NCBI GenBank assembly: GCA_000002445.1
Contig: CM000208.1
Span: 3,552,001-3,616,000, forward strand
Source: Trypanosoma brucei
Lineage: Eukaryota
Length of the DNA stretch: 64,000 nucleotides
Reading direction: 5' to 3'
The position numbers and the translations under genes were made by a program. Below the pieces are notes generated by a model. The model did not search any database. It was not told the DNA's origin and worked only from the letters and a program-made list of their open reading frames with translations. Shown piece after piece: positions 5,911 through 56,600 of the stretch (positions are counted from its first letter, which is position 1; each line of letters starts with the position of its first letter).

Positions 5911-6162
5911 GTGGACTGCACGGGTAGGGCATATAACAGTAGCGTTTAAGTGGGATAATAAGAAGGGAATTTAAAATCCACCCCGTGTTTTCAAATGCAA
6001 TTGGAACTGCATTAACACTATGCAAAAATATTCATTTTCTGTTACTATACTTGTTTCACCTCCTGCTTTAAGCAAAAATTTTTTTGTTTCCTTTATCCCA
6101 ATGTCGTTGTGTGGTCAACTTTGTCTCGTTCCGGTACGGGGGAACAACTGAAGGCGAGGTGC

Positions 6163-8715
6163 ATGGCAGAACATGCTTTTGCGTCCGAGACTAAGTATGG
6201 TCGTAGGCTGAATATGTATTTGTGTCACTGTTCCTCCGAAGAGGCAATTTTCCCTGCGACTGCGTTACGCTTGCACACCCAAACCTCAACCGGTTGGCAA
6301 TCTGCCAGGTTGTGTACATATCCTCAAGAACTTGGACTCAGTTTCAGTGGCGAAGTGGAGCTAGATTATATTCGTGTACTTTGTCACGAAAGCAATATAC
6401 CAACACGCATTGAAGTATTCGTTGCTGAGGCTAGTGATGGGAGCACAAAGTTGAATGTGGTTACGCCCTACGAAAACAGCAACTTTCAGCGGATAGGTTA
6501 TGTGCACTTTTCTGCTGGGAATGAAAGTGCAGTCGGTATCCGTGAACTTAAGACCATTAAAGTGTGTCGCAAGTGCGTTTTCGTAAAGTTTTTGATACTA
6601 AATCCATATAGTTCCAGTTTCAATACCTTTAATCAAGTGGGTATCATTGCCATGGCGGGCCACGGGCGGCTTGTGAAGAGTATACAACGTGAATCCACAA
6701 AGCGCATATGCGTGGTTGGGGAAACGGTGGAGGTGCCGCTGGAGAAGATGTTGCCACCGATATTAAATAAGTTACCATCTGCTCCTTCGGGATCCGATAA
6801 GTTCGGGGAGGTCGACGCCGTAACGAGACGCCGCCTTGCGGAACTTCTTCGTGTAAAAGAGCATGCAGTGATGACCGAGGATTATGACCTAGCTGGTGCG
6901 TTGAAACCAGTGCTGGCCACTTTGGAGGATGTTGGAAGGGAGATTTACGCATTAGAGCAGCGGAAAAATGCTGCCGTGGAGGAGGAAGACTATGCTTCCG
7001 CGAAGAAGTTAAGGGATGATATCGAGGGTATGCGGAGAACCGCCTACTTGGTCTCGATAAATCGGGTACACACGATTCGTAGAAGGTCAGTCGACAACGC
7101 AGTGGAAGTGCGGAATATTCAACACAACAATATATGTTCAGATGAAAAGCAAAAGGAAGAAAATCAATGCAGGGGTCTTTCACCACCTCCAGCGCCTAGG
7201 GTGTTTTCACCTTCGACGTTTGATGAAATGCCTGTAGGTGGTGCTGGATACTACCGACTCGTTGACGGCGAAACGGGTGCAAACGACCGGAACCACGGTA
7301 TTGCGGATGTCGTCGGTGATGTAGATGTACTTTCTGCATGTGTCATTCAAGGGAAAGAGAAATGGGAGGAGCTACTTCTTCGTGCAATAGTAACGATTTC
7401 TGGTTGTCAAAGTCTTGAGCTTGACGTAGAAGACGAATCGGTTGCGGAGGGAAAGAGATTCGAGAAGGTGTTCGGGTCTGTTTGTTGTGGCTGCTTATTT
7501 GGGAAAAGGGGGAAACTTCGGGAGGCAGCCATTCGAGCCATATGCACCCCATCTGTTTTTGTTTCTCTTTTGGGCCACGCGGATAACATTACGGAAATGC
7601 TACTTTCGTACGTGGTTCTTCCCACTCGTGGCCTAAACGATGCGACTACGTCAGTTGTCATCGCTTCTTGTGACGCGGTTCGTGCAATTGCCGAACAGTT
7701 AGAGGGAGTTCCACCGTTATCATCTCTGAATTCACACTTATCACCAGTTTTGTCGGCTCTAGTGGCCCGCCTAGGTGACAGCAACAACCGTATACGGGAG
7801 CGCGCAGAATCTGCTCTTCTATCAGTTGCCAAATCAGCGCTTGATGTCGTTGTGGTGGCCCTGGTTAGCAACCCCCAAAAGAAGAAACAACATACGGTGC
7901 CGCATAGGGTGCACGCCTCGCGCATAGCTGTACTGAATAACCTGGTAGATATGTACGGTGCCGACGGTGCAGTTTCAACAAATCTTGAGGCCCAAAATAT
8001 TCTTTCAGAAGTTGTGCTGCCCTGTATGCAGCACTCTAGCGGTGAGGTGCGGGACGCCGCAAGTTCCCTCTTTGCTAAGTTATTACTTGTCGCCCCCAGT
8101 ATTGCGCAAAGGAGTATCGGAGTTCTTAAACCAACTCAGTGGAGTGCCGTCGAACATTATTTGTCTGAGCTGACGGGCGGGGCGTGCGATGAGGGATTTT
8201 CTCGGGAGGTTGATACCAGTGATAGATTGCTCCCAAGGACCGGATTTGTTCCGTGTGCGACGCCAACTTCTGCTGAATCCGTAACAGGAAGTGCCTCTGC
8301 AGGACGTGACGCTGCATCAAAAACGTGTCATTTTTGTGGAGAATTCAACGAAGGGTTTGTGGAAGCCTCTTTGGATATTCACTTCATTCGCGCGTGCCCC
8401 ATGCTTTGCCCATGTCCTTTGTGTGACCAGGTTACCGAAATCGCAACGTTGCAACAGCACCTCACTGGCGAATGCGAGAACCGGCATTTGGTTCGTGAAT
8501 GCCCGAGATGCAAGGAGGCGGTGCGCGTAGAGGATATCGAGAGACATATTGCAGCAGAGTCCTGCATCAAAGCAGTCCCCACGCACAGCGTTTGTCCACT
8601 CTGCCACGCGCGGTTCAAGGCTGGAATGAAAGGGTGGTTAACACATTTGGCAGCGCCTCCAGGTTGCCCAAAGAACCCCAAAAAGTACGATGGATCAGGG
8701 CCCATTACCGAGTAG
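6163..8715 (+). CDS. CEP104: CEP104/FAP256 homologue (ciliary tip protein): N-terminal jelly-roll-like domain, central HEAT/TOG-like region, C-terminal Cys/His zinc-finger array.
   Basis: RLCTYPQELGLSFSGEVELDYIRVLCHESNIPTRIEVFV...FQRIGYVHFSAGNESAVGIRELKTIKV...NQVGIIAMAGHG aligns with human CEP104 FCQFPQEIVLQMVERCRIRKLQLLAHQYMISSKIEFYISE...FRRLGYVSLCDNEKTGCKARELKSVYV...NQVALVAINIIGD. C-terminus CHFCGEFNEGF...CPMLCPCPLCDQV...ECPRCKEAVRVEDIERH is ZNF-like. Start moved from 6109 to the first ATG after polyY+AG (6079-6153). Confidence 0.7.
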   Translation: MAEHAFASETKYGRRLNMYLCHCSSEEAIFPATALRLHTQTSTGWQSARLCTYPQELGLSFSGEVELDYIRVLCHESNIPTRIEVFVAEASDGSTKLNVVTPYENSNFQRIGYVHFSAGNESAVGIRELKTIKVCRKCVFVKFLILNPYSSSFNTFNQVGIIAMAGHGRLVKSIQRESTKRICVVGETVEVPLEKMLPPILNKLPSAPSGSDKFGEVDAVTRRRLAELLRVKEHAVMTEDYDLAGALKPVLATLEDVGREIYALEQRKNAAVEEEDYASAKKLRDDIEGMRRTAYLVSINRVHTIRRRSVDNAVEVRNIQHNNICSDEKQKEENQCRGLSPPPAPRVFSPSTFDEMPVGGAGYYRLVDGETGANDRNHGIADVVGDVDVLSACVIQGKEKWEELLLRAIVTISGCQSLELDVEDESVAEGKRFEKVFGSVCCGCLFGKRGKLREAAIRAICTPSVFVSLLGHADNITEMLLSYVVLPTRGLNDATTSVVIASCDAVRAIAEQLEGVPPLSSLNSHLSPVLSALVARLGDSNNRIRERAESALLSVAKSALDVVVVALVSNPQKKKQHTVPHRVHASRIAVLNNLVDMYGADGAVSTNLEAQNILSEVVLPCMQHSSGEVRDAASSLFAKLLLVAPSIAQRSIGVLKPTQWSAVEHYLSELTGGACDEGFSREVDTSDRLLPRTGFVPCATPTSAESVTGSASAGRDAASKTCHFCGEFNEGFVEASLDIHFIRACPMLCPCPLCDQVTEIATLQQHLTGECENRHLVRECPRCKEAVRVEDIERHIAAESCIKAVPTHSVCPLCHARFKAGMKGWLTHLAAPPGCPKNPKKYDGSGPITE

Positions 8716-9610: not shown

Positions 9611-9642
9611 TTGTTTGTATTCCATCCTTAATTGTGCTGCAG
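9611..9642 (+). promoter_or_regulatory. Polypyrimidine tract plus AG: candidate trans-splice acceptor for the kinesin-14 gene.
   Basis: ttgtttgtattccatccttaattgtgctgcAG lies 5 nt before the ATG at 9647. Confidence 0.5.
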
Positions 9643-9646
9643 AAAG

Positions 9647-12109
9647 ATGTCTGTGGAACAACCCGAGCAGCAAATAAGTGGACTTCTGGAGCAGCTGTAC
9701 CACAGTTCCAACGTGTCCGCAGAGCGTGAAACCATTATGAACCTGTCGAACGTCGTCAGGCAAGGAGGCGCAGAGTTTCTGCTTGACGTCGTCAAAACCA
9801 ATTTGAAGAGTGGAGTGCCCGAAAAGCAGGAGGCAAGTATGACCATTCTGGACGAGGTGACTCTCAACTGTGGTCCGTCGTTTGCTGTCATGCTTTCCTC
9901 ACAAAAGTGGATGGATCGCCTTATCAAGTTGGCTAAGGCAGGGCCGCCACAAGTAACTACCAAGATAATTTCTACTGTCATTGGGTGGCAAAAGCGGTAC
10001 CACACTGTTTCCTTTGCCCAGTGCATCAAGAAGCTGTCTCAGAGCAAAACTACGGGTGAGGCGTGCAAGCAGGCACTGCGTCAGGCAGGGGATGATGGTA
10101 CCGGGTCCTCACTGGGTTACGACGCGAGTTCTCCTGCTTCTCTGCGTTCGACAGGAGTAACCGACAGCCGGAAAAGTAAGAAGTGCGATGCCGTGTTGGC
10201 CGAGCTTCAGAGTGACCTTGTTTCTCTGGAGTACTCCCTTGAGAACCCCAAGTTTGTCCAGGATGATGCCATTGCAAGGGAGTGCAAGAATCACAAGATG
10301 AAGTGCATGCAAATGTTGGAATCAGGAAGCTATGAAAGCATTGCATCTGATCTTATGCAGTTGATTGAGCGCTTTTCCCGCGCTCTCGAGCTCTACGAAT
10401 GCATGACAGGCGTTGATTTGGGTGAGGGTGAAGCGGCAAGGTCGCGGGCTCTGACGAGGGGTAAGGATAATGGCGGTGACAGTGATGACGAGTACTCGAA
10501 ACAACTCCGTGCTCGCGTTGCGCCTAAAAATGCCCAACAAGTTATGCTTCAGGCTCAGGAAGCTACACAGCAGCTCGTGGAGAAGGAGCGTCATGAAACG
10601 ATGCAGCTGCGTACTCAGCTTGAGGAAATGCGCCGTAAGTACGAAGACATGCATAACAAGTACAAGGATGCTAAGGCAAGAAATAAAGAAGCGGTGGGTG
10701 CCTTGCAGGAGTATGCTAAACGCATAGAGGTGCTCGAGAAAAGCGGGGGCGGCGCCGCAGCCGCCGCTGCCGCACTGCCACCACCACCGCCTATTTCTGA
10801 AGAGAAAGACAAAGGAAAAGATAAATCGGGACCTGCCCTTAATGTGGGGCCAATAGCAACGGCCATGAGGGACACTGTGCAGGTTTTACGGCAGTCGCTG
10901 CGTGAGGTGCGGGAGCAGTACGTAAGCGATATCCAAAAGGAAAGCGCATATTACTCCTCTCAGCTCACTAGTGCTATTGCTTCGATTGCCGCTGCTGCCG
11001 AAAAGGATCGCGGTTCTAACAGCCAACTGTTGGTTCGCACCCAGGAGTTGTATAAGAGGGAAATGAAGCTGCGTAAGCAGTACTACAACCAGATTCAGGA
11101 GTTGAAAGGCAACATTCGTGTGTATTGCCGTGTTCGTCCCCTGCTACCAAGGGAAGTTGCTGCTGGCCATACGAATATTATGGACTTCCCCTCTGCCGAC
11201 GAGATCAGGGTCAACGATCCCGCTGGCCGGCAGAAGGTTTACGAGTTTGATGAAGTGTACCCGCCGCATGCACCCCAGGCCCGTGTCTTTGAAGACACGT
11301 CGCCTCTCATTGACAGCGTTGTGGATGGCTACAATGTTTGCATCTTTGCCTACGGCCAAACGGGAAGTGGCAAGACCCATACAATGGGTGGGTACGGGGA
11401 AGACAGAGGTATCAACACCCGTGCCTTGCAGCGACTGTTTGAGATCATTGACGAACGTAAGGACACTGATGAATCTACCGTTACCGTCTCTGTGCTTGAA
11501 ATCTATTGCGAGATGATCCGAGACCTACTGGTTCCGAAGGAGAAGTCCAAGTCCACGACTTATGAGGTGAAGCAGGGTGGCCAGTTCGGTACCTATGTGA
11601 CAAACCTTTCCGAAGTTCCCGTTCAGTGCGCTGACGAAATTACAAAGATTATGGAGAACGCAAACAAAAACCGCAGTGAGGGCCAGACGAATATGAATGA
11701 ACACTCTTCCCGATCCCATATGGTTTTGTATATCACTGTCCGAACAACGAACAAGGAAACCAATATGCAGTGCTTTGGTAAGCTCTCGCTTATTGACTTG
11801 GCGGGAAGTGAGCGTCTCGACAAGACAGGTGCAGAGGGACAGATGTTGAAGGAGGCTGTGGCTATCAACAAGTCGCTATCGTCGCTGGGAGATGTCATCT
11901 CCGGGCTGGCGCAGAACAGCAAGCACATCCCATTCCGTAACTCCGTGCTGACGTACTTGCTGCAAGACTCCATGGGTGGACAGGCCAAAGTTTTGATGTT
12001 TGTCTGCGTCAACCCTGCAAGTTACAACGCCAGTGAAAGTAACAGTTCGCTTCAATTTGCCTCTCGCGCTCGTGGCGTATCTCTTGGCCAGATCAAGAAG
12101 AATCCATAA
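9647..12109 (+). CDS. Kinesin-14 (C-terminal motor) with an N-terminal VHS/ENTH-like domain and a central coiled coil.
   Basis: Motor at nt ~11110-12109: neck GNIRVYCRVRP, P-loop IFAYGQTGSGKTHTM, switch I SSRSH, switch II LIDLAGSE. Residues 1-140 (MTILDEVTLNCGPSFAVMLSSQKWMDRLIKLAK...KIISTVIGWQKRY) resemble the VHS-domain core (e.g. GGA1 VLEACMKNCGRRFHNEVGKFRFLNELIKVV...KVIELLYSW). The ORF-track start at 9632 is TTG. The ATG at 9647 follows an AG at 9641-9642. Confidence 0.85.
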   Translation: MSVEQPEQQISGLLEQLYHSSNVSAERETIMNLSNVVRQGGAEFLLDVVKTNLKSGVPEKQEASMTILDEVTLNCGPSFAVMLSSQKWMDRLIKLAKAGPPQVTTKIISTVIGWQKRYHTVSFAQCIKKLSQSKTTGEACKQALRQAGDDGTGSSLGYDASSPASLRSTGVTDSRKSKKCDAVLAELQSDLVSLEYSLENPKFVQDDAIARECKNHKMKCMQMLESGSYESIASDLMQLIERFSRALELYECMTGVDLGEGEAARSRALTRGKDNGGDSDDEYSKQLRARVAPKNAQQVMLQAQEATQQLVEKERHETMQLRTQLEEMRRKYEDMHNKYKDAKARNKEAVGALQEYAKRIEVLEKSGGGAAAAAAALPPPPPISEEKDKGKDKSGPALNVGPIATAMRDTVQVLRQSLREVREQYVSDIQKESAYYSSQLTSAIASIAAAAEKDRGSNSQLLVRTQELYKREMKLRKQYYNQIQELKGNIRVYCRVRPLLPREVAAGHTNIMDFPSADEIRVNDPAGRQKVYEFDEVYPPHAPQARVFEDTSPLIDSVVDGYNVCIFAYGQTGSGKTHTMGGYGEDRGINTRALQRLFEIIDERKDTDESTVTVSVLEIYCEMIRDLLVPKEKSKSTTYEVKQGGQFGTYVTNLSEVPVQCADEITKIMENANKNRSEGQTNMNEHSSRSHMVLYITVRTTNKETNMQCFGKLSLIDLAGSERLDKTGAEGQMLKEAVAINKSLSSLGDVISGLAQNSKHIPFRNSVLTYLLQDSMGGQAKVLMFVCVNPASYNASESNSSLQFASRARGVSLGQIKKNP

Positions 12110-14076: not shown

Positions 14077-15798
14077 ATGGAGTACCCAGCGGAGTTCCAC
14101 ACACCGTCCACAGTGTATCAAGAGGGATGTACGACGTCTCCAAGTCCCACACCGATGTTCCCCAAGGTTTCAAATTTGGTGACAGGCATTTGGGAGCGGC
14201 CTTCCGAATCTCACGATGCTGGCTGTCTTAAGGATTACGCTGTGCGTGAAATGCGGGATGCTACGCAATCTAACGCCCAACCGACGTCAGTGCCATCCCC
14301 TCGGTGCACATCCAATGTAAATGACGGTTTCAGGATCCCCCCTTACGACACGTTTCTGCCTACGTGTGATAAAGAGAGGTCCCAAATTTCTGCGCCCACA
14401 GTGGATGGGGTTTCCATCAATGCCCTCTCCAGCCTCTTCAGCAGTGAACCCATATTGGCCGAGAATACGGTACCAAGCGGTGACTGGGATGTCTTCTTCC
14501 CTTTGAGGGAGTGTTGGAACAGTTCTTCCCGCCCGCCGACACCGACCATACCACTCGGTGTTTGTGCTAACATTACTGATACTCCTCCAAAGCTGCATTT
14601 GTCGAACGCGATTGGGGAAGTTTGTCCGCAGAGCGCAGATATGCAAAGGCCCTTCTTTTCGCTAGAGGAGGATACAGAGAGTGAGGAAGTTTGCGCACTC
14701 CCGGTGAACTTTGGTACAACCTACTGTTCTGAGGGGAACATTGTCGAAGCCCTCATTGCGCAGCTCGCAGCGAATGGCGACAGCGTGGTGCCAACTTCGA
14801 TCAACAAAGTTTATGCACCCCAAGGCCAGAGGACATCATCTGCTATGTCTTCGTTTCAAGAGGGAACGGTACGCAACGCAAAACGGGGCGCAGCCGTCTC
14901 TGACCCTCTCGCAGCGCACCTTCTCGACAACACAACCGACATTTATGAGGGAGTCGCTGGTCGTCACGTCGCTGCCACGGCAGTGTGTGAGGGTCAACAG
15001 CGTCACGTGCCTCCATTCGCCATATGTTGTTCGCCCATTGACCTACCAGGTGTGGGCAATGGGCGTGCGATGAATGAACGGCACCGCGGGTTTATTCAGC
15101 ATCGCCAGCGCGGTGCCGACACTGCTTCGCGATCTGGAAAGGGAGGATTGGCTCCAGGCAGTTGGCATCTTGGCCGGAGACCTCTCTACTCTTTGCCGTT
15201 TCCTTTGGTGGATCACAGCATGCTGAGTGACTTATACCGTGATACCCCTCAAGATCAAGAGTTGAGGCGTATTATCAACTCTAACGGCCCCGGTGGACCG
15301 CTTATGTCGTCTGAGTGGCCGCCGCGTACGAAGAGTTGTGTGGTAAAAATGTTGAGGCAGTTGCACGCGAAGGTGTTGCTGCAGCATCTGCGGGTTGTGA
15401 GTTTTGCCCGAAGGGATCTCTACGGAGTGGTGCGCCTGTTTGACTCGTGGAACGGTAAAGGCATTCCGCCCCCTGGCGTCATGTTCGGATCATACTACTT
15501 CTATACCATGTCAAAATTTGGCAGAGAGATGTGCCTGAAGCATAACGGTCGCGAGCGGGCGGGTGGGTTTTGCCGAGGGTGTGACTATGCCCAGCGGGGT
15601 CCCAACTTTAGATGCCGCTACCAGCACGCTTGCCTCTTTTGCTTGTCCGATGATCATGGGTGGTTTGACGAAACATGCTGCCAGCGATATGTCGCCTTGC
15701 AGCAAAAGATGGTGGAGCTGAGGATAACTGATGCCGTGGCCCAAGCGCTCCTTGACGCGCTGGAAACTGAAGATGAACCCATTCGCCGCAAGGGGTGA
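14077..15798 (+). CDS. Hypothetical protein (573 aa) with a C-terminal Cys/His cluster that may bind zinc.
   Basis: ATG-initiated ORF on the coding strand, downstream of a 320-nt pyrimidine-rich block (13540-13860). C-terminus MCLKHNGRERAGGFCRGCDYAQRGPNFRCRYQHACLFCLSDDHGWFDETCC has about 8 Cys/His ligands with B-box/RING-like spacing. Confidence 0.5.
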   Translation: MEYPAEFHTPSTVYQEGCTTSPSPTPMFPKVSNLVTGIWERPSESHDAGCLKDYAVREMRDATQSNAQPTSVPSPRCTSNVNDGFRIPPYDTFLPTCDKERSQISAPTVDGVSINALSSLFSSEPILAENTVPSGDWDVFFPLRECWNSSSRPPTPTIPLGVCANITDTPPKLHLSNAIGEVCPQSADMQRPFFSLEEDTESEEVCALPVNFGTTYCSEGNIVEALIAQLAANGDSVVPTSINKVYAPQGQRTSSAMSSFQEGTVRNAKRGAAVSDPLAAHLLDNTTDIYEGVAGRHVAATAVCEGQQRHVPPFAICCSPIDLPGVGNGRAMNERHRGFIQHRQRGADTASRSGKGGLAPGSWHLGRRPLYSLPFPLVDHSMLSDLYRDTPQDQELRRIINSNGPGGPLMSSEWPPRTKSCVVKMLRQLHAKVLLQHLRVVSFARRDLYGVVRLFDSWNGKGIPPPGVMFGSYYFYTMSKFGREMCLKHNGRERAGGFCRGCDYAQRGPNFRCRYQHACLFCLSDDHGWFDETCCQRYVALQQKMVELRITDAVAQALLDALETEDEPIRRKG

Positions 15799-16415: not shown

Positions 16416-17346
16416 GCTTTAAGTATTGTGTGCATACGGATGCACGCAAAGTTATACACGCACGCGCCTTTTTTTTTTTCCACCTGATCGCGTTCAGTAG
16501 GCCGTGGGGATATCTTCAGAGGTGTGCTTATTATCGTTTTTATTATGATTATTTATTTAATTTGTTAAATAGTGTTAATACGGAGTTGTGGTGGGCGTCT
16601 CCGCCTTGCCTGCCGATTTTAATTATGTTTTCCGTTATTTTTACGTTTGTTATTTTGTCGCTGTTGTTGCTTACGGTTTCCCGTATTTAAAGTTTCCCCT
16701 TCTCTCTTTTTTCTTGTGCGTTGCCGTTCCAGCCCCCTTTTCTTTCAGCGTGGGTATTTTCCCACTATCCAAAGGTCCTTTTCCTTTTTTGGTTTCCTTT
16801 TTTTCTACTTATGTGTGCAACCTCTCTTTTCTATTTCTCCACGCAGCCATTTGGGTCCAGTGTCCCGTAACGTCCCGCTGTGTGGCGCGGCAATTTTATT
16901 TTTACTGGGATGAATTTAACAGTTTTCCACCACATTTTTTTCCTCTTCTTTTTATTTTGCTTTCCCAGATTGCTTGCTGTTTATTGTTATTGTTATTATT
17001 TTCTGTTACCTGGTTCCCCTTGTTTTGTACTCGCCAAATTAGCCTTTTCATTCAATAATAATAATAATAAAGTACCTGCTGACTTTTTTTGTGGGCCTGT
17101 TTTTAATCTCTTTTTTTTAAACTTCATGTGGTACTGGAGAGAGGAATGCAAAAAAAAAAAAGAAAGAGAGAAGGAAATGAAAAGCTGAGGAAGGAAACAA
17201 AACAAAGAATAGAGAGTTTCACTGATTGACAAGTGTCTTGCCATCGCATTTTCACACATTCTTCAGGCTTGAGGAGAGCAGCGCTCATGGCTTCGGGTGT
17301 GTGGAGTGGCGTTACACCTTAACCCAACGAAAAAGACTATACGTGC

Positions 17347-17440
17347 ATGTATACATATATACATATACATATATACAAATGGTATTTTTTTTAAAAATAA
17401 ATAAATATACATATATATATATATATATATATACATATAT
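17347..17440. repeat. Imperfect (TA)n/(TACA)n microsatellite cluster.
   Basis: atgtatacatatatacatatacatatatac ... atacatatatatatatatatatatatacatatat. Confidence 0.85.
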
Positions 17441-18686: not shown

Positions 18687-20240
18687 ATGAGTTCGGGTAA
18701 TAGGGACCTTTCAGTGGACAATCCGTTGCAATGGAGAGATCTTAATAACACAGAGGAATTTATGCGAAAATTGCATGAGATTTACATGAAAAGTGTGAAG
18801 CCTCTTGAGGACATATACCTGTATGAGGTACTTTCCCCTCGGTGGTTTGAAGAGACTCTTTCCAGTTATAAACCTATAGTTACCTTCTTGGGACCGTGGT
18901 CAGCCGGGAAGAGTACATTTATTAATTACCTCTTGCAGGACAATTACCTTTTTACGGGACCTCAGCCAACCACTTCAGAGTTCACCGTCATCACTTATGG
19001 CGATGATGTGACCACGTTGGACGGTCACGTCGTTGCCAGCACAAAGGACCTCCCTTTTAGGGCTTTAGCCAACTTCGGAGAGGGATTTATGGGCAACTTC
19101 TGTGGGTTGCAGGTCCCGCATGAGCTCTTAAAGCGTGTTGTACTCGTTGACACTCCAGGTGTGTTGGAAAATTCCACCGACGATAGGGAGCGGCGCTACA
19201 ATTATACTGAAGTGTGCCGATGGTTCGTGGAACGTAGTGACATGGTTTTCCTGCTGTTTGACCCCGCTAAGCTCGACGCTGGTACCGAGTTGCGTAATCT
19301 GTTCAGGTACACTTTCAAGGGAATGGAGGGGAAACTTCGCATTGTTCTAAATAAGGCCGACAGTGTCGCGAAAAAGGAACTGATGCGTGTGTACGGCAGC
19401 CTTTTTTGGAATCTGTCTACGTTGATTCGCTGCACAGAACCACCGCGGGTGTACATTGGCAGTTTTTGGGATCAGCCGTACAAACCGGGTACGTTTGCGC
19501 TGCTCTTCACGAAGGAAAAGGAGGATCTGCTTTATGAGCTGACGGAGTTGGTTCCCCGGCAGGCACGGGACAGAAAAGTCGCTGCTCTTATAAGCCATGC
19601 AAAGAAAGTCGTTTGCCACGCGTACATTGTAGGTGGAATCCGGGCAGATCTCCCGATGTTTTTCGGTAAAGAAAAGGCTAAACGCAAAGCATTGGAGAAT
19701 TTGCCGAAAACATATCAGTTGGTTGCATCCAGAAATCGACTCAGCCCGAAGGATCTTCCTCCTGCGCAGCTGTACCATGAATACTTCGAGAAGGTGCACC
19801 TTGAAAAACTCCCAGATATAAAAAAGGTTGAGAAAACGGGGATGATAACGACCGCTCAACATTACATTTGCAATATTTTGCCCAGTATGTTCTACCCTAT
19901 GAAGCAAGTCCCCGTTCCAGACCCACGGAATAAGACGGAACAAGGGAAGTTGCGGGAAATGTACTACGGGGGTCTGCGTGACCAATATGATGGAAAGGAA
20001 GGTAAACAGGGAAGCAGTGATACAGTGCCAATCGCCTTTCGGGAGACCGCGCTTGGTCCAAATCCAGAACTACGTGGTGGATGCGGCCAGCTTACTGTGC
20101 CGGGGGCAACGGCAAACACCACTCCCGCTATGAATAACGTCCAAATGAATGAACAGCAACAACAAATGCTCATGCAGATGATGATGATGATGCAGCAACA
20201 GCAGCAGCAAGGGAACAACCAGTTCTATGCTCCACGGTAG
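18687..20240 (+). CDS. EHD-family dynamin-like ATPase (EHD/sarcalumenin G-domain) lacking the C-terminal EH domain. Ends in a Q/M-rich tail.
   Basis: VTFLGPWSAGKSTFINYLL...GPQPTTSEFTVI...VVLVDTPGVLE...RIVLNKADSV...LMRVYGSLFWNLS...RVYIGSFWDQPY aligns collinearly with EHD1 LFLGQYSTGKTTFIRYLL...GPEPTTDSFIAV...ISIIDTPGILS...RVVLNKADQI...LMRVYGALMWSLG...RVYIGSFWSHPL. C-terminus MNEQQQQMLMQMMMMMQQQQQQGNNQ. The ORF-track start at 18606 is TTG. The first ATG is 18687, after polyY/AG (18570-18650). Confidence 0.8.
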   Translation: MSSGNRDLSVDNPLQWRDLNNTEEFMRKLHEIYMKSVKPLEDIYLYEVLSPRWFEETLSSYKPIVTFLGPWSAGKSTFINYLLQDNYLFTGPQPTTSEFTVITYGDDVTTLDGHVVASTKDLPFRALANFGEGFMGNFCGLQVPHELLKRVVLVDTPGVLENSTDDRERRYNYTEVCRWFVERSDMVFLLFDPAKLDAGTELRNLFRYTFKGMEGKLRIVLNKADSVAKKELMRVYGSLFWNLSTLIRCTEPPRVYIGSFWDQPYKPGTFALLFTKEKEDLLYELTELVPRQARDRKVAALISHAKKVVCHAYIVGGIRADLPMFFGKEKAKRKALENLPKTYQLVASRNRLSPKDLPPAQLYHEYFEKVHLEKLPDIKKVEKTGMITTAQHYICNILPSMFYPMKQVPVPDPRNKTEQGKLREMYYGGLRDQYDGKEGKQGSSDTVPIAFRETALGPNPELRGGCGQLTVPGATANTTPAMNNVQMNEQQQQMLMQMMMMMQQQQQQGNNQFYAPR

Positions 20241-20795
20241 GAGCACTGCTAGCAAAAAGTAAGATCTTAAGCAGTAAAGTAGTACTGAACTGCTTCGCTG
20301 TGCTAATGCCGCGCTCGTTGCTCACACCATTGGTGAAGCCGTTAACTAGTTGGTGCCTTCATTCGTGCTTTTGTCGGTTGTTTTGTTTGTCCTACCGTCA
20401 TGGCTTATCTCAGACGGTTTCTGGCTTCGGAGGTTTGGCCAATAAACGAACATGGTTGCGCACTGGATGAGGGGGGGGGGTATTCCGAAACAAACTAAAC
20501 GACTATGTTATTGCTTTTGCTGGAGCTTACTTGCCCATCCTTACACTCCTTTCTTCCTATGCGCATACCGTTTTTATATATGTGCACTTGGGGTTGTATG
20601 CGTATTTGCTTCTTCAAGTTTCCTAAACGCCTTCGTCACTGTTGGCATATATACGCTTTTTTGCTGTCAGGGGTTGCGCCATGTCGTTTCTTGGTGGCAT
20701 ATTTGCTTTTGCTACTTCGGTAAGAAAAGGGGGAAAAATCGGTGAGAGAGTGTGTCTCCCATTGTGCAACGTTCTCATACTTGCCAAAGTGCTCA

Positions 20796-20843
20796 TTTTC
20801 CGATTTTGTCTCCCAACGTTGTTTTCCTTTCTCTTTTTTTTAG
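20796..20843 (+). promoter_or_regulatory. Polypyrimidine tract plus AG: candidate trans-splice acceptor for the 20861 gene.
   Basis: gctcattttccgattttgtctcccaacgttgttttcctttctcttttttttAG lies 17 nt before ATG 20861. Confidence 0.5.
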
Positions 20844-20860
20844 AGCGACGGAGCCCGTTC

Positions 20861-23800
20861 ATGACTCAACCGGTGGATGACAGTTGGTATGATGCTGAAC
20901 TCCTTGATGCGCTGCTGGGGAAAGAGGACGTTGACCCTTCACATGTACCGCTCTCGTCGCTGGCGGCCGCAGCACCCGCGACAACACCGAAGGGGTCTTG
21001 TAGGGCTTTAGAGATTACTGATTTGGGTCATCCGCGCCTCTTTATGATTGGCGGTTCCCTCTTTTCACGATACTGCAGGCCTTCTCCAGCCCTGCAGTAT
21101 CATCGAGCTCGTTTTCACTGGTCTCGCCTCTCGTGGCTGGATTACAGTGCCATTTACTGTCCTTTCACAAAGCAGTTTCTCTCTCCGCGTTCCCCGCATT
21201 GGAGTCACCTCGTCTCAGCTGGTTTTGGCACCCCTCGCCGTTTGCTTTTTGGTCGAAGCATCGTTCTGGTGGAGCCCCAGAAGCTGCAAGCACTAGCAGC
21301 TCACATTCAACAATCGAAAGAGGGGAATGCTGTTTCCGGGAAGAACCCAACTGCAATGTGGAGTCCTCCACTGCAGCAGACATTAGGCCTTCTTCTCGAG
21401 ACGCTGCCCTACCATGACGAGACTTCTTTAGCGCGGCGAGTGCAAGAGGTGTTAAGTGCGGGGGATACCGGAGCTGGCACCGGTCGCCGCATACCGCTGG
21501 GTCTTTATAACCATGTGCCCGATGTGAAACGCGTCATGCCGCCGCCGCGGAGTTCTCAGGAGGGGGAGGAGGAGGAGCTCGCACAAAATGACGTTGATGC
21601 CGTTGAAGTTGTGGCCCTGGGGGAAAGTTACTTGCGACGGGTTCTTCCCTGGCGCACTGCAGTGCTGCAGCACCGTCCCAAAATGAAGTTAAATATGAAG
21701 GTGGGACACAAGGAAATGGTGGGTTTGTCATCTGAAGGTGCCGACCTGCATCCTGCACACAGCAAAGCCGATGTACTGGTAGAACGTTATTCCTTACTGT
21801 GTTCCACCCCCTGTTGTGTTCCGAAGACCCAAATGGCTTATTTGTCTCTCCGTTACGTGCCCGATGTTCCGGTGATGCAAGTTGTTGTGGACGCGCTGCT
21901 TCGCACTGAGGAAACAGAGTATGTGTTTTACTGCCCAATTGAACACGGTGTCGACTGTCACACAGTGGTGGATATTGTAGCATACCGGGTACGGCGCACG
22001 GGGGACGGAGATGTGCGGGCCGCTGAACGCTTCCCAGTGCTTCATTTGGGGCTGCATGCAAACCCTACCGACTCTTCCGTTGCGCCTGTCATTGTCGTCA
22101 TCGGAAATGCCCATCTACTTTCACAGCGTGCTATTTCCCGCCTTCTGGATCAGTGGACACGTAATGGTGCCGCCGCCGTCGCGGTTAGACGAAGGAATGG
22201 TGGTAGCGGTGACAACGGGAACAGTGATGTCGGCATCGATGCGGATGAGGCCGTTGGGCGGAGTTGGCGGGGACGGGAGTTACTGCTGCGAATAGGGGAT
22301 CCACTGCGCGCTATCGCTTGTGGCGTGCCCCTCTTTGGGAATGTCCGTGCAGTGTTTGTCTCCTACTCTGCATTTGATTGTGCTCCTAGTGATTGCTCAG
22401 CTCACTCCCCGGGACTAAATAACAGCGTGTCATGCGTTCGTAGTGCCAACGCCACCGTTCACGTTCTTAAACCTTTGCGTGAAGGTGTTTTCACTCTCGA
22501 AGAGCCGGTTGTTGCAGCGCTGAGACGAGTAGCCCCGACGTTCCAGAGGCGAATGGACGTGTCGGATAGACGTTTGTTTATTAAGGAAGTGTGTGATGTC
22601 ATTTCAAGCACACACGTTTCCACACTCTCCAACAGGGGTGCGGACAGACATGGGTGGACAACGTCACCCGATGACAGTTATCGCGAGGAAGATGTCTTAT
22701 TACACTTGTATGAGGCTGTGGAAGCGTTTCTAGAATGCCCAGTGAAGAGCGGGGATGTCAGCCTCCTATCGTGTGCCCATTTGATGACAAAGTACCCTGA
22801 ACTCGCGACGGCGCGCATCCGGCATGAGCTTATTCGCGAGTTCCCCCTCTACGTGGAAATGAATAAAAGTGAACTAACGGTTTGCTCAGCTGTTTCGGCT
22901 CCGGCACCAGACAGTGTCGTTGAGTGCGCGGCTGGTGGGTCCGGGTCTTGTGAGTGTGCTGCTGGATTTAATATTCCCCTGGTGAGCAGTCGCCGTCTCG
23001 CACGCAAGAAAGCTGAGGAAGAACACGACTCACTCAAGAAAACGTACGTTCTAAATGCGACACTGGATCGTGTCGTCACCTCTGACGCCAGTGGTTGTGG
23101 CTCTTCATTCACATCCGTTATCATGCGGGGCTCTGAGCATCAACGGTACGAATGCCCGATTGAGCACAGTTACCAACCCTTCTTTGAGCCCCCTCTGTTG
23201 CTGGGTCGTTGGAGTCAAACACTTCTTTTCTGCGCTCCTGTGGTTGCCGATACGGTAGCGCTGCGGTGCGTGCTGCTGCATGCCGCGGAGGCTTCGGTTC
23301 GTGACGATGACACTATCAATGTGGTTGACGTGGATATATTTTGTGTGGATTACGTGAAATATCCCCCTGAACGCCGCTGTCGCTTGTTTGGAGTGAGATT
23401 GCGCTTCGCTACACGTGATGGGTTCACAAAAGGTACCGTTAAGGATTGCTCAGCACGTGAGTGGGCGACGGAAATGTTGGAACATGCGCTCGCTAAGTGC
23501 GCCGTCAGTGCAGAGTTATTTCCGCTGTGGACCAGTTCTGAACTAAGGAAGCAGAGAACCTGTCGTCATGTTACACAAGGTAGTGGAGTGGCCGGCACCT
23601 TCGTACCACACTTTCGTTTTGAGGCGTTGGATGAGTGTGTGAGAGCAGCACAACCTAACGTAGTGGAACAGCGACTATTTGCGCTTGGATTTGTTCAATG
23701 TGGCCCACTATGCCTCACTGTCGGCTCCCACGTAATTGCGTTACGCGACATATCCTCCAATATAAAACGAGGGACACTGTGCCGCGTTGTTCGCTTCGCT

Positions 23801-24403
23801 CCGATGATGGTCGCACACGAGTTCGGGGCGCCAGTGGATCGAATGGTCCAATGCTTTTTTGAGCAGCAGAGATGTAAAGGTGGCGGTATGGGGGCATTAC
23901 CCGTAGTGCGGCCAGTGTTACAACCAAATAATTTGCAGGTCACCCCATTCGGGGAAGCGGATGAAAGTGAGAGGGAAACAAGAGATGAAGAGGCGTTAGT
24001 TATTCCCGCCGTAAGTTTGGTCGGTGGATACCGGTCGTTACACTATTATGCACTGCCGGCACTGCAGCTGCCGCTTCTCGTGCCGTCTCAAGCCGCAGCC
24101 GCCTCCACTCTTTTTCATCCACTCTTTGCACACCAAGACAGTTTACTGGAGTTCGCTTCAGCGGAGACTCGCTCAAAGGCTGCGACGATGATAATGTCGC
24201 TACCACCTTCCTTAGGTGCGCGGAGAAGTGTGTCATGCGCGTTTTTGTATGATGCTGTCTTTGACGACGGAGAGTCCGGAGCTGAAGTTCATGAAGAGGG
24301 CGGGCAGTTTCCCCCTCATGGGAGTAAGGGCAGTGCTTCTCCCTCTTATACTGTGTGTTGTGATGTACTATCGGCGCTTTCACTTTTCCCATTGAGGGTG
24401 TAG
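20861..24403 (+). CDS. Large hypothetical protein (about 1180 aa), no recognisable domain.
   Basis: Continuous ORF with gene-like codon usage. The ORF-track start at 20642 is TTG, and the in-frame N-terminal 73 aa are F/L-rich translation of a pyrimidine tract. ATG at 20861 (MTQPVDDSWYDAELLDALLGKEDVD) follows polyY+AG 20796-20843 directly. Alternative ATG at 20681. Confidence 0.55.
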   Translation: MTQPVDDSWYDAELLDALLGKEDVDPSHVPLSSLAAAAPATTPKGSCRALEITDLGHPRLFMIGGSLFSRYCRPSPALQYHRARFHWSRLSWLDYSAIYCPFTKQFLSPRSPHWSHLVSAGFGTPRRLLFGRSIVLVEPQKLQALAAHIQQSKEGNAVSGKNPTAMWSPPLQQTLGLLLETLPYHDETSLARRVQEVLSAGDTGAGTGRRIPLGLYNHVPDVKRVMPPPRSSQEGEEEELAQNDVDAVEVVALGESYLRRVLPWRTAVLQHRPKMKLNMKVGHKEMVGLSSEGADLHPAHSKADVLVERYSLLCSTPCCVPKTQMAYLSLRYVPDVPVMQVVVDALLRTEETEYVFYCPIEHGVDCHTVVDIVAYRVRRTGDGDVRAAERFPVLHLGLHANPTDSSVAPVIVVIGNAHLLSQRAISRLLDQWTRNGAAAVAVRRRNGGSGDNGNSDVGIDADEAVGRSWRGRELLLRIGDPLRAIACGVPLFGNVRAVFVSYSAFDCAPSDCSAHSPGLNNSVSCVRSANATVHVLKPLREGVFTLEEPVVAALRRVAPTFQRRMDVSDRRLFIKEVCDVISSTHVSTLSNRGADRHGWTTSPDDSYREEDVLLHLYEAVEAFLECPVKSGDVSLLSCAHLMTKYPELATARIRHELIREFPLYVEMNKSELTVCSAVSAPAPDSVVECAAGGSGSCECAAGFNIPLVSSRRLARKKAEEEHDSLKKTYVLNATLDRVVTSDASGCGSSFTSVIMRGSEHQRYECPIEHSYQPFFEPPLLLGRWSQTLLFCAPVVADTVALRCVLLHAAEASVRDDDTINVVDVDIFCVDYVKYPPERRCRLFGVRLRFATRDGFTKGTVKDCSAREWATEMLEHALAKCAVSAELFPLWTSSELRKQRTCRHVTQGSGVAGTFVPHFRFEALDECVRAAQPNVVEQRLFALGFVQCGPLCLTVGSHVIALRDISSNIKRGTLCRVVRFAPMMVAHEFGAPVDRMVQCFFEQQRCKGGGMGALPVVRPVLQPNNLQVTPFGEADESERETRDEEALVIPAVSLVGGYRSLHYYALPALQLPLLVPSQAAAASTLFHPLFAHQDSLLEFASAETRSKAATMIMSLPPSLGARRSVSCAFLYDAVFDDGESGAEVHEEGGQFPPHGSKGSASPSYTVCCDVLSALSLFPLRV

Positions 24404-27471: not shown

Positions 27472-29160
27472 ACGGGTATGAATGGGGAGCAGGAGAAAAG
27501 AAGAGGGAAAAGAAAAGGGTGGGAAATGCAGGCGCATGTAACCAAGCAAGAACAACTGAATCAAATAAACAACATGACAAAAGGAAATAAAAGGGAAAAT
27601 GAAAGGGGATATAAAAGGAGGAGGAGGAGGAGAAAAAACAAAATTCCATAAAATGTCTTATGAGAAAAGGAAACACGGGTGGAAGGGGATGCCAATATTA
27701 GAGAGGGAGATTATTACTAGTAAAAGAAAGGTTTGATTAAGTGTGGGGAAAGGGCTGGTTTAACAACGATAATAACAAGGGGGGAGTGTTGCTTTTTATT
27801 TTGTTTCTGGTTGTTGTTGGTGTTGTTGGTTTTCTTTTCCTTTTTTTTTTGTGTGGGGAGGGAGAGGTGTGAGGAGTCGTGGGGGAGCTTTGTTAAATAG
27901 GGCGAAATGTTGCCATGAAAGGCGGTGAGGAAAGTAAAGGAAAGAAAAAAAAGGGTGGAAAGGAGTAATAATAAAAATAATAGTGGTAATAATAATAATG
28001 TGAGGGAGGGAGAGAGTGACACTTTCGCATTGCGCAACCGTCGTGCTTGTCTTCCTCTTTGGATGTCCGTTTTCCTTTTCTTTTCTTTTCTTTTTTTCTT
28101 TTTTGTTTTGTTTTGTTTTTTGAGCGAGAGAATGAGCAGGAGCGTCATGTTAACGGTGGACTGAATTGGTTTCCGTGTGCAAGTGATGTTGGAGAGAGAA
28201 ATGTGGGTTCATTTTATTTATATGTTGGACTCTTCACAGACTTTACTCTTCTTTCTTTTTCTTTTTCTTTTTGTTGTTGTTGTTGTTGTCAGCTTCCTCG
28301 TCCCCCGCGTGGCTTCACAAGCGTTGCTGAGGATTTGCTCATGCGCGCATGCTGTCGCTCAAAATCTCACAGAGAATGCAAAGGAAAAAAAAACATGTAA
28401 ACACAGAATAATATGCGCAACGTTTGCAGGGGGAATAGATGGCGACATTTTTCTTTTTCTTTTTTGTTTTGTTTTTCTTTTGTCATTCTTCTTCTGCGTT
28501 TTTTAAAGTTTTTTTAGTTTTTTTTCCCTCTTCTGTTCAGGTTCTTTGAAATTTTGTATATGTTATGAGTTTGGGCATCTTTTGCTCTTTGGTTACCGTA
28601 TTCTGCGTGAAGGAAGTTGTGAATGTTCGGATGGTAGAAACATTATGTCTTCGCGTTTGTAGTTGAATATGTGCGTGATTTTGCTTCCCCCTTTTTCGTT
28701 TGTTTTTTTTTGTGTTTTTTTTGTTTGTTTGTTTGCTTGTGTGTGTGTGTTTGTGTGTGTTTGTGTTTTCCCTCACCTTCACCACCAGTACCGTTTCTAT
28801 ATAAACACGGAAGGTGGAAATAAAACGAAAAAAAAAAAGAAGAAACGAAGCAAAACAAAAAAAAACTAATAATAATAATAAGGCAGGTACAAAAGGAAGC
28901 AAATAAACCTGGGTGACACGAAGTTATTGTGTGAGTTCCATGGAAGATCTTATTTTTGCAGAAACAAGTGTTTGGATATCCCCATGTGTCCGCGTATTTG
29001 CGGAGAATGCGAAGGGTAATCACACATTTCTGTGCTTCAAAGAAAAAAACAAACAAACAAATAAATAAATAAATGTATAAGTTGAGTGGGTGTTTTTGTT
29101 TTTTTTTCATGCGTTTGTTTGGCGTGCGTTCAAACTCTCTAGTCAGTTTCGTTCTGCCCT

Positions 29161-29222
29161 TGTTTTTATTTTTATTTTTATTTTTATTTTTATTTTTGTA
29201 CTTTTCTTTTCTTTTCTTTTTT
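29161..29222. repeat. Hexamer (TTTTTA)6 followed by a pentamer (CTTTT)n.
   Basis: tgtttttatttttatttttatttttatttttatttttgtacttttcttttcttttctttt. Confidence 0.9.
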
Positions 29223-29323
29223 ACTTTACTTTTCATGCCTCCTTTCCTGCCTCTCATACATACCAAACACACGCGCATAAACATTTCTCCTTTCTTTTCT
29301 ACAGTGACATAGCACAACTACAA

Positions 29324-35411: not shown

Positions 35412-35442
35412 AAAAAAATCGTACACTCACAACTACTTTGCC

Positions 35443-56552: not shown

Positions 56553-56557
56553 CATAA

Positions 56558-56600
<43 letters not shown>

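Follow-up and report, generated by a model that had tools for sequence, protein, structure and literature searches.

A Trypanosoma brucei EHD/sarcalumenin superfamily protein without an EH domain, from a third, Euglenozoa-wide clade

The locus and the EHD-like core of its product

The window analysed here, a stretch of 64,000 nucleotides of the Trypanosoma brucei genome, contains a complete coding sequence (18687..20240, + strand, as are all coding features given below) for a member, 517 aa long plus the stop, of the EHD/sarcalumenin superfamily of membrane-shaping enzymes. The first in-frame ATG lies at 18687 and the stop codon at 20238-20240. An alternative start at Met26 (492 aa), which appears in some public gene calls, was rejected in favour of the ATG at 18687 because conservation with T. 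congolense extends over residues 20-28 (..EEF.R.L). The protein is 100% identical to XP_011778973.1 and differs from XP_827969.1 by one substitution, and the locus is probably Tb927.10.14910 / Tb10.61.1710. The gene is already in the databases, where the T. brucei protein identical to XP_011778973.1 is named "sarcalumenin precursor" and also "sarcoplasmic reticulum glycoprotein"; the name "sarcalumenin" is misleading and is corrected by the present analysis. A homologue search found no second paralogue of the superfamily in T. brucei, which appears to have one member only, and no reports on the function or localization of this protein or any orthologue were found in the trypanosomatid literature.

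Comparison of the protein with Pfam gave matches to Dynamin_N (1.2e-16), to DUF5600 (1.7e-14), the Pfam entry for the helical domain of EHDs, and to EHD_N, which at 1.9e-4 scored slightly over the gathering cutoff, while NCBIfam returned generic GTPase matches only, all of them below threshold and with DynA far under its cutoff. Strong sequence matches in the PDB were limited to EHD4 (1.6e-74 over aa 29-443) and EHD2 (3e-68), values far beyond chance. The AF2 model (pLDDT 82) has open-form EHD4 as its top structural match (TM 0.77, rmsd 4.4 A), with a Foldseek value of 1e-28 vs 1e-11 or weaker, at rmsd 10-30 A, for classical dynamins, DRPs and mitofusin/BDLP. Membership in these last groups was rejected, as neither stalk/BSE/GED elements nor BDLP-type bundles with a TM paddle were recognized by Foldseek and NCBIfam.

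The core begins with an N-terminal helix (EHD_N; 18771..18854, aa 29-56), which contributes to the composite helical domain and is modelled as a helix at residues 22-43 with pLDDT >90. It is followed by a dynamin-like G domain (18864..19550, approximately aa 60-288, pLDDT ~90-97), defined by the Dynamin_N match and with approximate limits taken from the EHD2/EHD4 alignments. The P-loop GPWSAGKST (G1; 18891..18917, aa 69) places K75/S76 at the positions of EHD2 K71/T72, and its two Gly residues and its Lys are invariant in the euglenozoan, EHD and sarcalumenin clades. Switch I, PQPTTS (18960..18977), includes T96, equivalent to the hydrolysis residue T94 of EHD2, for which the T94A phenotype has been described (PMC3364743); this Thr is found in all euglenozoan sequences (120/120) and all EHDs (74/74), as opposed to only 12/23 sarcalumenins. 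The equivalent of the KPF loop, LPFRALANF (19050..19076), contains no NPF and aligns F124 with F122 of EHD2 at oligomerization interface-2 (the role of this loop is described in PMC9741607). The G3 motif DTPG (19149..19160, aa 155) has D, P and G in all 120 euglenozoan homologues and T in 115 of them, the remainder having S, and the G4 motif NKAD (19350..19364 with the Ser226 that follows, aa 222) is invariant in the same set. Trp241 (19407..19409), which corresponds to Trp238 of the EHD-specific dimer interface-1 in EHD2/4 (W238A data in PMC9741607), has its equivalent in 120/120 euglenozoan and 23/23 sarcalumenin sequences. The EHD signature motif RVYIGSFWDQPY (19446..19481, aa 254), which includes RVYIGSFW, was identified by alignment.

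The helical domain (DUF5600; 19551..19886, aa 289-400) is modelled with long helices at 271-321, 328-349 and 386-400 and bears the polybasic tip FFGKEKAKRK (19659..19688), which aligns with the membrane-binding site F322/K324/K327-329 of EHD2 (K327D data in PMC3364743). Its F-G-K-x-K-A-K pattern is nearly invariant among the 120 euglenozoan homologues and is lost in sarcalumenins. The EHD-like fold, catalytic motifs, dimer-interface Trp and polybasic tip are thus kept in ~120 euglenozoan relatives. The collinearity with the EHD1 G domain and helical region that the first-pass annotation had proposed is borne out by the presence of all four motifs on which it relied (GPWSAGKST, DTPG, NKAD and RVYIGSFWDQPY) and by the EHD domain set found in Pfam; the HMM search that it suggested matched Dynamin_N and EHD_N and found EH absent.

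The missing EH domain and the C-terminal tail

Pfam searches of the whole protein, of its tail and of the flanking frames gave no match to the EH domain (PF12763), and the last 133 aa gave no Pfam match at E<=10. Stop-free frames of at least 30 aa between the gene and its neighbours were equally free of Pfam matches at E<=10, except for one weak and irrelevant match upstream, and EH-like coding potential is absent from every frame of the downstream intergenic region (20241..20860). An in-house EH HMM, validated against Pfam, recognized 46 EH-bearing homologues, all from outside the Euglenozoa. More than 100 independently assembled orthologues share the identical EH-less architecture, which excludes a frameshift or a split EH exon, and these orthologues together with the flanking frames rule out an EH domain missed through a frameshift or in a downstream ORF. 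The central claim of the first-pass annotation, an EHD-type protein without EH domain, therefore stands, and the comparison with kinetoplastid orthologues that it recommended found the domain absent there too; the C-terminal end, which it had placed ~150 aa past the helical domain, in fact lies ~117-130 aa beyond it.

Since the EH domain is absent, both EH-NPF recruitment and the EH-tail autoinhibition described for EHD2 (PMC5084822, PMC3364743) are impossible for the T. brucei protein, and targeting and auto-regulation must rely on other elements. That recruitment has to differ from the EH-NPF mode, as first suggested from the reading frame, is upheld by Pfam, the flanking frames and the in-house HMM. 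Scanning the protein for the short linear motifs NPF, GPF, KPF, DPF, DPW, clathrin box, FxDxF, WxxF and KDEL returned none of them.

The EH-less state is not unusual in the EHD/sarcalumenin superfamily: it occurs in bacteria, sarcalumenins, dinoflagellates, Aureococcus, Cymbomonas and Rhodelphis, and EH-less members are found inside the EHD clade as well. Some EH-less relatives carry FYVE or transmembrane modules, including an environmental relative in which the same core is fused to a PI3P-binding FYVE domain. Because FYVE-fused, TM-anchored, EH-bearing, signal-peptide and tail-bearing versions all exist, the targeting module is the variable and evolutionarily interchangeable part of the superfamily. 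EHD research, a 2026 review (PMC13282721) included, sees the EH domain as integral to both recruitment and auto-inhibition; neither sarcalumenin nor protists or trypanosomes are mentioned in that review. Here, an entire eukaryotic phylum possesses the EHD core with no EH domain and with a different conserved tail instead.

The region beyond the core comprises three parts. A clade-specific block, DPRNK...L..MY....R.QYDGKEGKQGSSD (19914..20021; predicted helix 413-434, pLDDT ~83), has no Pfam match and is kept in the alignment of both kinetoplastid paralogues and of diplonemids. It is followed by a linker (20022..20144, aa 446-486) that is predicted to be disordered (pLDDT 37-49) and is poorly conserved and variable in the alignment, and then by the M/Q motif NVQMNEQQQQMLMQMMMMMQQQQQ (20145..20216; predicted helix 488-507, pLDDT ~81). 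The poly-M/Q end reported in the first-pass annotation was recovered as the string MQMMMMMQQQQQQ at aa 496, with no EH match.

The M/Q motif was detected in 80/113 euglenozoan tails vs 0/56 EHD and 0/8 sarcalumenin tails (0/64 others). It is confined to kinetoplastids and diplonemids, being absent in euglenids, occurs often in 2-3 copies, and is present in both ancient kinetoplastid paralogues. The tail is length-invariant among T. brucei strains despite its (ATG)n(CAG)n coding tract, for which no repeat-length polymorphism was seen among T. brucei isolates; this invariance and the persistence of the motif argue for selection. Conservation in the real tails is compositional and not positional. 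An amphipathic helix was considered for the M/Q tail and dropped: the consensus has a muH of 0.34 (p ~0.006 vs shuffles), whereas the real sequences are not amphipathic (0.17 in T. brucei, 0.09 in Bodo, 0.12 in T. theileri). The M/Q tail thus represents a motif conserved within its clade and specific to it, not incidental low complexity, and the tail may act as a targeting or regulatory element.

Position in the superfamily and alternative readings

The gene belongs to a third, Euglenozoa-wide clade that lies outside the EHD and sarcalumenin families and is equidistant from both. The sarcalumenin (SRL) clade leaves the T. brucei gene out with 99% (unrooted) and 100% (bacteria-rooted) bootstrap, and it also falls outside the EHD clade, whose 74 sequences include every EH-bearing one, with 93-96%. 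The euglenozoan branch is slowly evolving. In the bacteria-rooted NJ tree with 200 bootstraps, the euglenozoan clade grouped with SRL in 87 replicates and with EHD in 87, and SRL with EHD in 6; the trees rest on distance/NJ methods only, in which long-branch attraction may draw sarcalumenin towards the outgroup.

The outgroup was obtained with the P-loop/switch-I segment only, which retrieved 80 prokaryotic loci, while a scan of prokaryotes with the whole-core alignment gave no matches. Bacterial EHD-like dynamins (Methylococcus capsulatus L003; Pseudomonadota, Verrucomicrobiota and Planctomycetota MAGs L005, L006 and L041 as examples) share homology with the T. brucei core (E 1e-35 to 1e-52) that spans the N-terminal helix and the G domain and reaches into the helical domain, and they have no EH domain, so that the EH-less condition may be the ancestral one. 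They differ in their size of ~450-520 aa, in lacking an M/Q tail and, in many cases, in a hydrophobic TM hairpin located right after the core homology ends, adjoining the position of the eukaryotic basic tip.

With mammalian EHD1-4 and C. elegans RME-1, which are dynamin-related ATPases (2QPT, 4CID, 5MTV, 5MVF, 7SOX), the T. brucei protein shares the N-terminal helix, the G domain and the helical domain at 30-37% identity, together with the P-loop, switch-I Thr, DTPG, NKAD, the RVYIGSFW signature, the dimer-interface Trp, the PF of the KPF loop and the polybasic F-G-K...K-K-K membrane tip. Unlike them, it has no EH domain, NPF or GPF motif, adds the conserved helix 413-434 and the M/Q tail, and falls outside the EH-bearing clade; neither the N-terminal MFSW peptide nor the Met after NKAD of EHD2 is kept, the latter being replaced by Ser. 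Plant and other EHDs with an N-terminal EH domain (AtEHD1/2 type) have the same core and illustrate that the accessory module can shift its position in the course of evolution, but they retain the EH domain and belong to the EHD clade.

The EHD fold and residues could also be those of a canonical EHD orthologue that, after secondary loss of the EH domain in the euglenozoan stem, continues RME-1-like endocytic recycling unchanged and carries the M/Q tail as neutral low-complexity filler. Such loss or replacement does occur, given the EH-less members inside the EHD clade, and the compositional conservation of the tails and the 87/200 bootstraps that join Euglenozoa to EHD agree with it; however, the grouping with SRL is equally frequent, the gene lies outside the EH-bearing clade, bacterial homologues suggest that absence of the domain may be ancestral, and the M/Q motif persists in kinetoplastids, diplonemids and both paralogues, is missing from 64 other tails and keeps its tract length among T. 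brucei strains, which argues for selection. This scenario is considered improbable, though it is the most credible of the alternatives.

Nucleotide use bears on a second alternative, the term ATPase in the first-pass annotation being an assumption. The residue after NKAD is Ser in the T. brucei protein and either Ser or Thr in the majority of the euglenozoan clade, and in EH-bearing EHDs it is Gln in 31, Ser in 11, Thr in 7 and Met in 6, Met being absent from most. EHD1, with NKADQ, is an ATPase nonetheless; Met is therefore not required for ATP use and, as it is lacking here and in most EHDs, the sequence does not decide between ATP and GTP. In EHD2 the equivalent Met223 is reported to exclude guanine (PMC5084822). 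A GTP-using dynamin-like protein acting mainly outside endocytosis, for example in membrane dynamics of the ER, acidocalcisome or contractile vacuole or in the organization of Ca2+ stores, would accord with the Ser in place of this Met, with the lack of an EH tail to occupy the G4 Asp, and with the Ca2+-store roles raised for non-metazoan members by Schaffer et al. (2020). It is nevertheless judged very improbable, considering the EHD comparison just given, the FYVE-fused relative, which points to PI3P-positive endosomes, and the up-regulation in bloodstream forms, which fits endocytosis.

The sarcalumenin annotation has its origin in real similarity. The first-pass annotation had named top matches to sarcalumenin as grounds against its own reading, and these grounds are in part borne out: outside the Euglenozoa the sequence search does return sarcalumenins first (~300 bits, 42-45% identity over ~345 aa), ahead of EHDs (~250-268 bits, 33-40% identity), for both kinetoplastid paralogues; the trees, however, assign the gene to neither family. 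Metazoan sarcalumenin likewise has an EH-less core of the common superfamily, and kinetoplastid proteins were tied to its origin, from a kinetoplastid-like lineage, by Schaffer et al. (2020), who suggested Ca2+-store roles as possible. The T. brucei protein also contains six N-x-S/T sequons. On the other hand, its N-terminus is hydrophilic (mean KD -1.2), and hydropathy and motif scans revealed no hydrophobic N-terminus, TM segment or KDEL-like end; by a crude hydropathy rule, a signal peptide was scored in 2/120 euglenozoan sequences vs nearly all 23 sarcalumenins, which have hydrophobic N-termini. In the protein, 24 aa precede the core and 132 aa follow it, vs 390-755 and 41-71 in sarcalumenins, so that the protein lacks their long acidic N-terminal extension and short C-terminus. 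The switch-I Thr and the basic tip, degraded and lost, respectively, in sarcalumenins, are intact here, and DUF5600 is detectable here and not in the two sarcalumenins tested. With the SRL clade also leaving the gene out, true orthology to sarcalumenin, which would make the protein an ER-luminal glycoprotein with a role in Ca2+ buffering or SERCA regulation, is the least probable of the readings, marginally behind the GTP-using protein.

Proposed mode of action and stage-specific expression

The reading that is preferred here, and regarded as probably correct, is that of a cytosolic, nucleotide-driven, EHD-like membrane remodeller of the third, slowly evolving Euglenozoa-wide branch, distinct from luminal Ca2+-binding sarcalumenin and with its targeting and auto-regulation provided by non-EH elements. 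In this reading, the protein would dimerize through the G-domain helix carrying Trp241 and bind acidic membranes via the polybasic helical-domain tip FFGKEKAKRK; the PF loop and G interface would then mediate oligomerization, and the nucleotide would be hydrolysed upon assembly. The clade-specific helix 413-434 and the Met/Gln-rich C-terminal motif are the candidate elements for targeting or auto-regulation.

A more far-reaching version is advanced tentatively and is rather doubtful as a whole. It proposes that helix 413-434 and the Met/Gln-rich motif constitute an undescribed kinetoplastid/diplonemid targeting or auto-regulatory module replacing the EH domain, that the protein is the only EHD-family remodeller at the flagellar pocket and recycling endosomes of T. 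brucei, and that the ancient third branch keeps the ancestral EH-less state, possibly with a different nucleotide use.

The putative remodeller likely acts in endocytosis and recycling at the flagellar pocket; what suggests this is just the FYVE-fused relative and the up-regulation in bloodstream forms. Bloodstream forms have a much higher endocytic flux, and this stage depends on very fast endocytosis and recycling. Since the family member is apparently single and up-regulated at this stage, T. brucei offers a tractable single-gene system for the action of an EHD core without EH-NPF interactions, with a possible role at the flagellar pocket. The mRNA is 2-fold higher in bloodstream forms, and translational efficiency is higher there by log2 1.6-2.1.

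Gene identity and domain architecture

The gene at 18687-20240 (+) is real and ordinary-looking. The most apt description of its product is an EH-less, EHD-like putative membrane-remodelling NTPase within the EHD/sarcalumenin superfamily, from a branch specific to Euglenozoa; databases misname the protein. Its ORF begins at the first in-frame ATG after a stop and encodes 517 aa. The protein matches XP_011778973.1 of T. b. gambiense ("sarcalumenin precursor, putative") at 100% identity and differs by one residue from XP_827969.1/Q388B5, assigned to chromosome 10 of T. b. brucei TREU927 as "sarcoplasmic reticulum glycoprotein, putative". Since Tb927.10.14910 (old ID Tb10.61.1710) is the sole T. 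brucei gene bearing that product name in the literature, and the kinesin gene two genes upstream (9632-12109) agrees with the nearby Tb10.61.1750 of the same published table, the studied gene is probably Tb927.10.14910. The mRNA of Tb927.10.14910 is 2.0-fold up in cultured bloodstream forms versus procyclics (PMC2771046, Table 3) and its translational efficiency is increased in bloodstream forms by log2 1.63-2.11 (PMC4210626, Table 2). Several public gene calls (Logan assemblies) start at Met26 (492 aa) instead of Met1; conservation with T. congolense appears to favour Met1, with 18687-18764 encoding aa 1-26. No functional or localisation study of the protein or its orthologues was found in the literature.

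The first-pass annotation had described an EHD-type protein without an EH domain, and every motif that it quoted lies in the ORF where it had been placed. Pfam detects Dynamin_N (1.2e-16), the EHD helical domain as DUF5600 (1.7e-14), and EHD_N (1.9e-4), and no EH domain in the 517 aa, which bears this description out. An EH domain missed through a frameshift or encoded by a separate ORF is ruled out, because the C-terminal 133 aa and the tested stop-free frames up to the neighbouring genes gave no relevant Pfam match, and because the EH-less architecture is common to more than 100 independently assembled orthologues.

A third clade beside EHDs and sarcalumenins

The core (N-terminal helix, G domain and helical domain) was searched exhaustively against 1.84 billion representative proteins. 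The best matches beyond euglenozoan relatives (~300 bits, 42-45% identity) are long proteins whose C-terminal end is formed by the homologous core, named as vertebrate and mollusc sarcalumenins; canonical EHDs rank next with 33-40% identity (e.g., Entamoeba EHD, 268 bits; nematode RME-1, 249 bits). The ranking was unchanged with the second kinetoplastid paralogue as query. Top hits to sarcalumenin had been named beforehand as evidence against an EHD assignment, and this objection holds in part, for the best non-euglenozoan sequence matches of both paralogues. Among solved structures, the only strong matches of the protein are EHD4 (1.6e-74, aa 29-443) and EHD2 (3e-68).

A neighbour-joining tree of 217 sequences and 353 core columns resolved three clades. 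The EHD clade (74 sequences, bootstrap 96%) holds all 46 EH-bearing proteins, with the EH domain C- or N-terminal, mostly without a signal peptide. The sarcalumenin clade (23 sequences, 99%) has no EH domain, an almost always hydrophobic N-terminus and in most members a long extension. The euglenozoan clade of kinetoplastids, diplonemids and euglenids (120 sequences, 74%) also has no EH domain, with a crude signal-peptide call in 2/120. As its mean tree distance to sarcalumenins (1.33) is close to that to EHDs (1.34; sarcalumenin to EHD, 1.65), the euglenozoan clade is a short-branched third lineage, equally distant from both named families. One insect 'EHD' entry, P0092 (Heliothis virescens, 731 aa), was left out of the trees; it has two copies of the core, lacks an EH domain and almost certainly results from an error of gene modelling or assembly.

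A first prokaryotic outgroup scan retrieved no homologues; a second found them in Methylococcus, Bradyrhizobium, Verrucomicrobiota, Planctomycetota and Bacillaceae, and the ~40 best-scoring align from the N-terminal helix into the helical domain (1e-25 to 1e-52). Rooting with 24 bacterial homologues kept every clade (bacterial 100%, sarcalumenin 100%, EHD 93%, euglenozoan 74%). Per 200 bootstraps, the euglenozoan clade was paired with sarcalumenins in 87 and with EHDs in 87, and sarcalumenins with EHDs in 6. It has been proposed that sarcalumenin proper stems from a transfer out of a kinetoplastid-like lineage (Schaffer et al., 2020; PMC7016017); a sister relationship of the euglenozoan and sarcalumenin clades is neither confirmed nor excluded by these trees, in which sarcalumenin was not seen nested inside kinetoplastids.

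Across the superfamily the core is constant and the membrane-targeting or partner module has been swapped repeatedly, as EH-less, FYVE-fused, TM-ended and TM-hairpin relatives demonstrate. Full-length EH-less members occur inside the EHD clade itself, in Durusdinium trenchii (P0234; a tandem array of ~10 copies on one contig), Aureococcus (P0322), Cymbomonas (P0319), Rhodelphis (P0183) and MMETSP transcriptomes; two of those examined, P0155 and the Durusdinium protein P0234, have a TM-like hydrophobic C-terminal end. In the euglenozoan clade, the environmental protein P0077 (JGI/ENA; 563 aa) joins an N-terminal FYVE domain (4.8e-14) to an EH-less core, and is a natural case of an alternative (PI3P) targeting module. 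Bacterial EHD-like proteins, encoded at loci such as L003 (Methylococcus capsulatus), L005, L006, L041 and L058-L070 (Bradyrhizobium), show 45-61% identity over the P-loop/switch-I segment, the best-scoring being homologous across most of the core; many carry a hydrophobic TM hairpin directly after the end of core homology, adjoining the position of the eukaryotic basic tip, and the Bacillaceae versions exceed 900 aa. The swapped modules thus comprise a TM hairpin, an N- or C-terminal EH domain, FYVE, a TM anchor, a signal peptide with acidic region, and a Met/Gln-rich (M/Q) tail. The EH-less state is by itself unsurprising and may be ancestral.

Annotation of the gene goes back a long way, and Schaffer et al. 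(PMC7016017) had already noted its clade in a phylogeny. Sarcalumenin, protists and trypanosomes go unmentioned in a 2026 EHD review, where the N-terminal EH domain of plants is the sole architectural exception listed. As far as was found, what is new is the protein's contrast in function with sarcalumenin, the recognition of a third clade marked by a conserved C-terminal module of its own, the taxonomic spread of the M/Q motif, and the single-copy status in T. brucei.

Functional residues and the C-terminal module

The protein was aligned to full-length EHD2 in natural numbering and published functional positions, with roles known from the mutants T72A, T94A, K327D, F122A/F128A and W238A, were tabulated by clade. 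In all 120 euglenozoan sequences the P-loop Lys, switch-I Thr96 (EHD2 T94), NKAD and Trp241 (W238 of the dimer interface) are unchanged, as are D, P and G of DTPG (T in 115/120, otherwise S). Near-invariance extends to the oligomerisation residue Phe124 (EHD2 F122) and to the tip F326-G-K-x-K-A-K-[KR]-K (EHD2 F322, K324, K327-329). The T. brucei protein keeps the P-loop Lys, switch-I Thr, dimer-interface Trp, oligomerisation Phe and basic tip of EHD2. In sarcalumenins, by contrast, the N-terminus is almost always hydrophobic, the switch-I Thr is degraded (kept in 12/23), the signature motif is partly degraded and the basic tip is altered (K332 to A or F, K334 to D), whereas the T. brucei protein has a hydrophilic N-terminus and retains both switch-I Thr and tip. 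An AlphaFold2 model (54 homologues; mean pLDDT 82, pTM 0.77) best matched open "active" EHD4 (5MVF, 5MTV; TM 0.77, rmsd 4.4 A), with EHD2 second and much weaker matches to mitofusins and BDLPs. Judged from its residues, the protein would functionally resemble EHDs and not sarcalumenin. The best reading is that of a putatively cytosolic, peripheral-membrane protein, because the N-terminus is hydrophilic and neither a TM-like window nor an ER-retention signal was found in the sequence. The database name reflects the closest animal homologue that has a name and implies no shared function.

The label "ATPase" in the first-pass annotation is an assumption. Met directly after NKAD is a steric determinant in EHD2 (PMC5084822); the T. 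brucei protein has Ser, most of the euglenozoan clade Ser or Thr, and most EH-bearing EHDs likewise lack this Met, so that sequence does not decide between ATP and GTP.

The EH domain of EHD2 is required for correct targeting, the delta-EH form lacking caveolar localisation, and the EHD2 C-terminal tail holds the G interface in an auto-inhibited state and also engages the aspartate of G4; neither mode of control can apply to the T. brucei protein. Its C-terminus contains two conserved elements separated by a disordered linker: the block DPRNK..Q..L..MY....R.QY.GK.GKQGSSD, with a predicted helix at 413-434 (pLDDT ~83), and the M/Q motif, with a predicted helix at 488-507 (pLDDT ~81). Under a strict definition, the motif, with consensus (T)P-E-Q-M-x-x-M-M-x-M-M-Q-Q-x-Q-Q-Q, occurs in 80/113 euglenozoan tails (at least two copies in 38), and in 0/56 EHD and 0/8 sarcalumenin tails; the core never contains it. 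It is found in diplonemids and both ancient kinetoplastid paralogues, and is absent from euglenids, which have Pro-rich tails, and from the FYVE-fused relative. Its length is constant among T. brucei isolates despite the (ATG)n(CAG)n tract, and it matches no Pfam family. An amphipathic helix was considered and rejected: only the consensus is amphipathic and real sequences are not, so it is the composition in Met and Gln, and no defined face, that is conserved. We infer a possible role in targeting, self-association or auto-regulation.

Paralogues and genomic neighbourhood

Kinetoplastids have two ancient paralogue groups, A and B, represented in Trypanosoma by P0001/P0002 and P0098/P0065/P0071/P0074 respectively. 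Searches were run from both, with candidates pre-filtered by shared words; on this basis T. brucei and T. congolense have group A only, on a long branch, and T. vivax, T. theileri, T. grayi and T. melophagium group B only. Both occur in T. cruzi, T. rangeli, T. conorhini and Leishmaniinae. This distribution suggests apparent reciprocal loss among Trypanosoma, and T. brucei appears to have one family member among the word-pre-filtered candidates.

With one exception, the large ORFs of the window all have + orientation, consistent with a polycistronic unit. The same polycistron includes two cilium/flagellum genes, a CEP104 homologue with N-terminal, TOG and ZnF domains (6109-8715, +) and IFT52 (35383-37410, +). 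The kinesin gene at 9632-12109 (+), probably Tb10.61.1750, which is 5-fold up in bloodstream forms in the published table, encodes an unusual trafficking-adaptor/motor fusion with an N-terminal VHS domain (1.8e-8) and a C-terminal kinesin motor (3.8e-113). The immediate neighbours, at 14077-15798 (+; 573 aa) upstream and 20861-24403 (+; ~1180 aa) downstream, had no Pfam match at E<=1e-3. A microsatellite, (CATATATA)n / (AT)n, lies at 17346-17440 in AT-rich intergenic DNA upstream of the studied gene. The window contains no tRNA genes and only two minus-strand ORFs of at least 220 aa, at 28643-29317 (-) and 63086-63862 (-). GC content is lowest (0.34) and GC skew reversed at 56001-58000, which together with 63086-63862 (-) may mark a strand-switch region.
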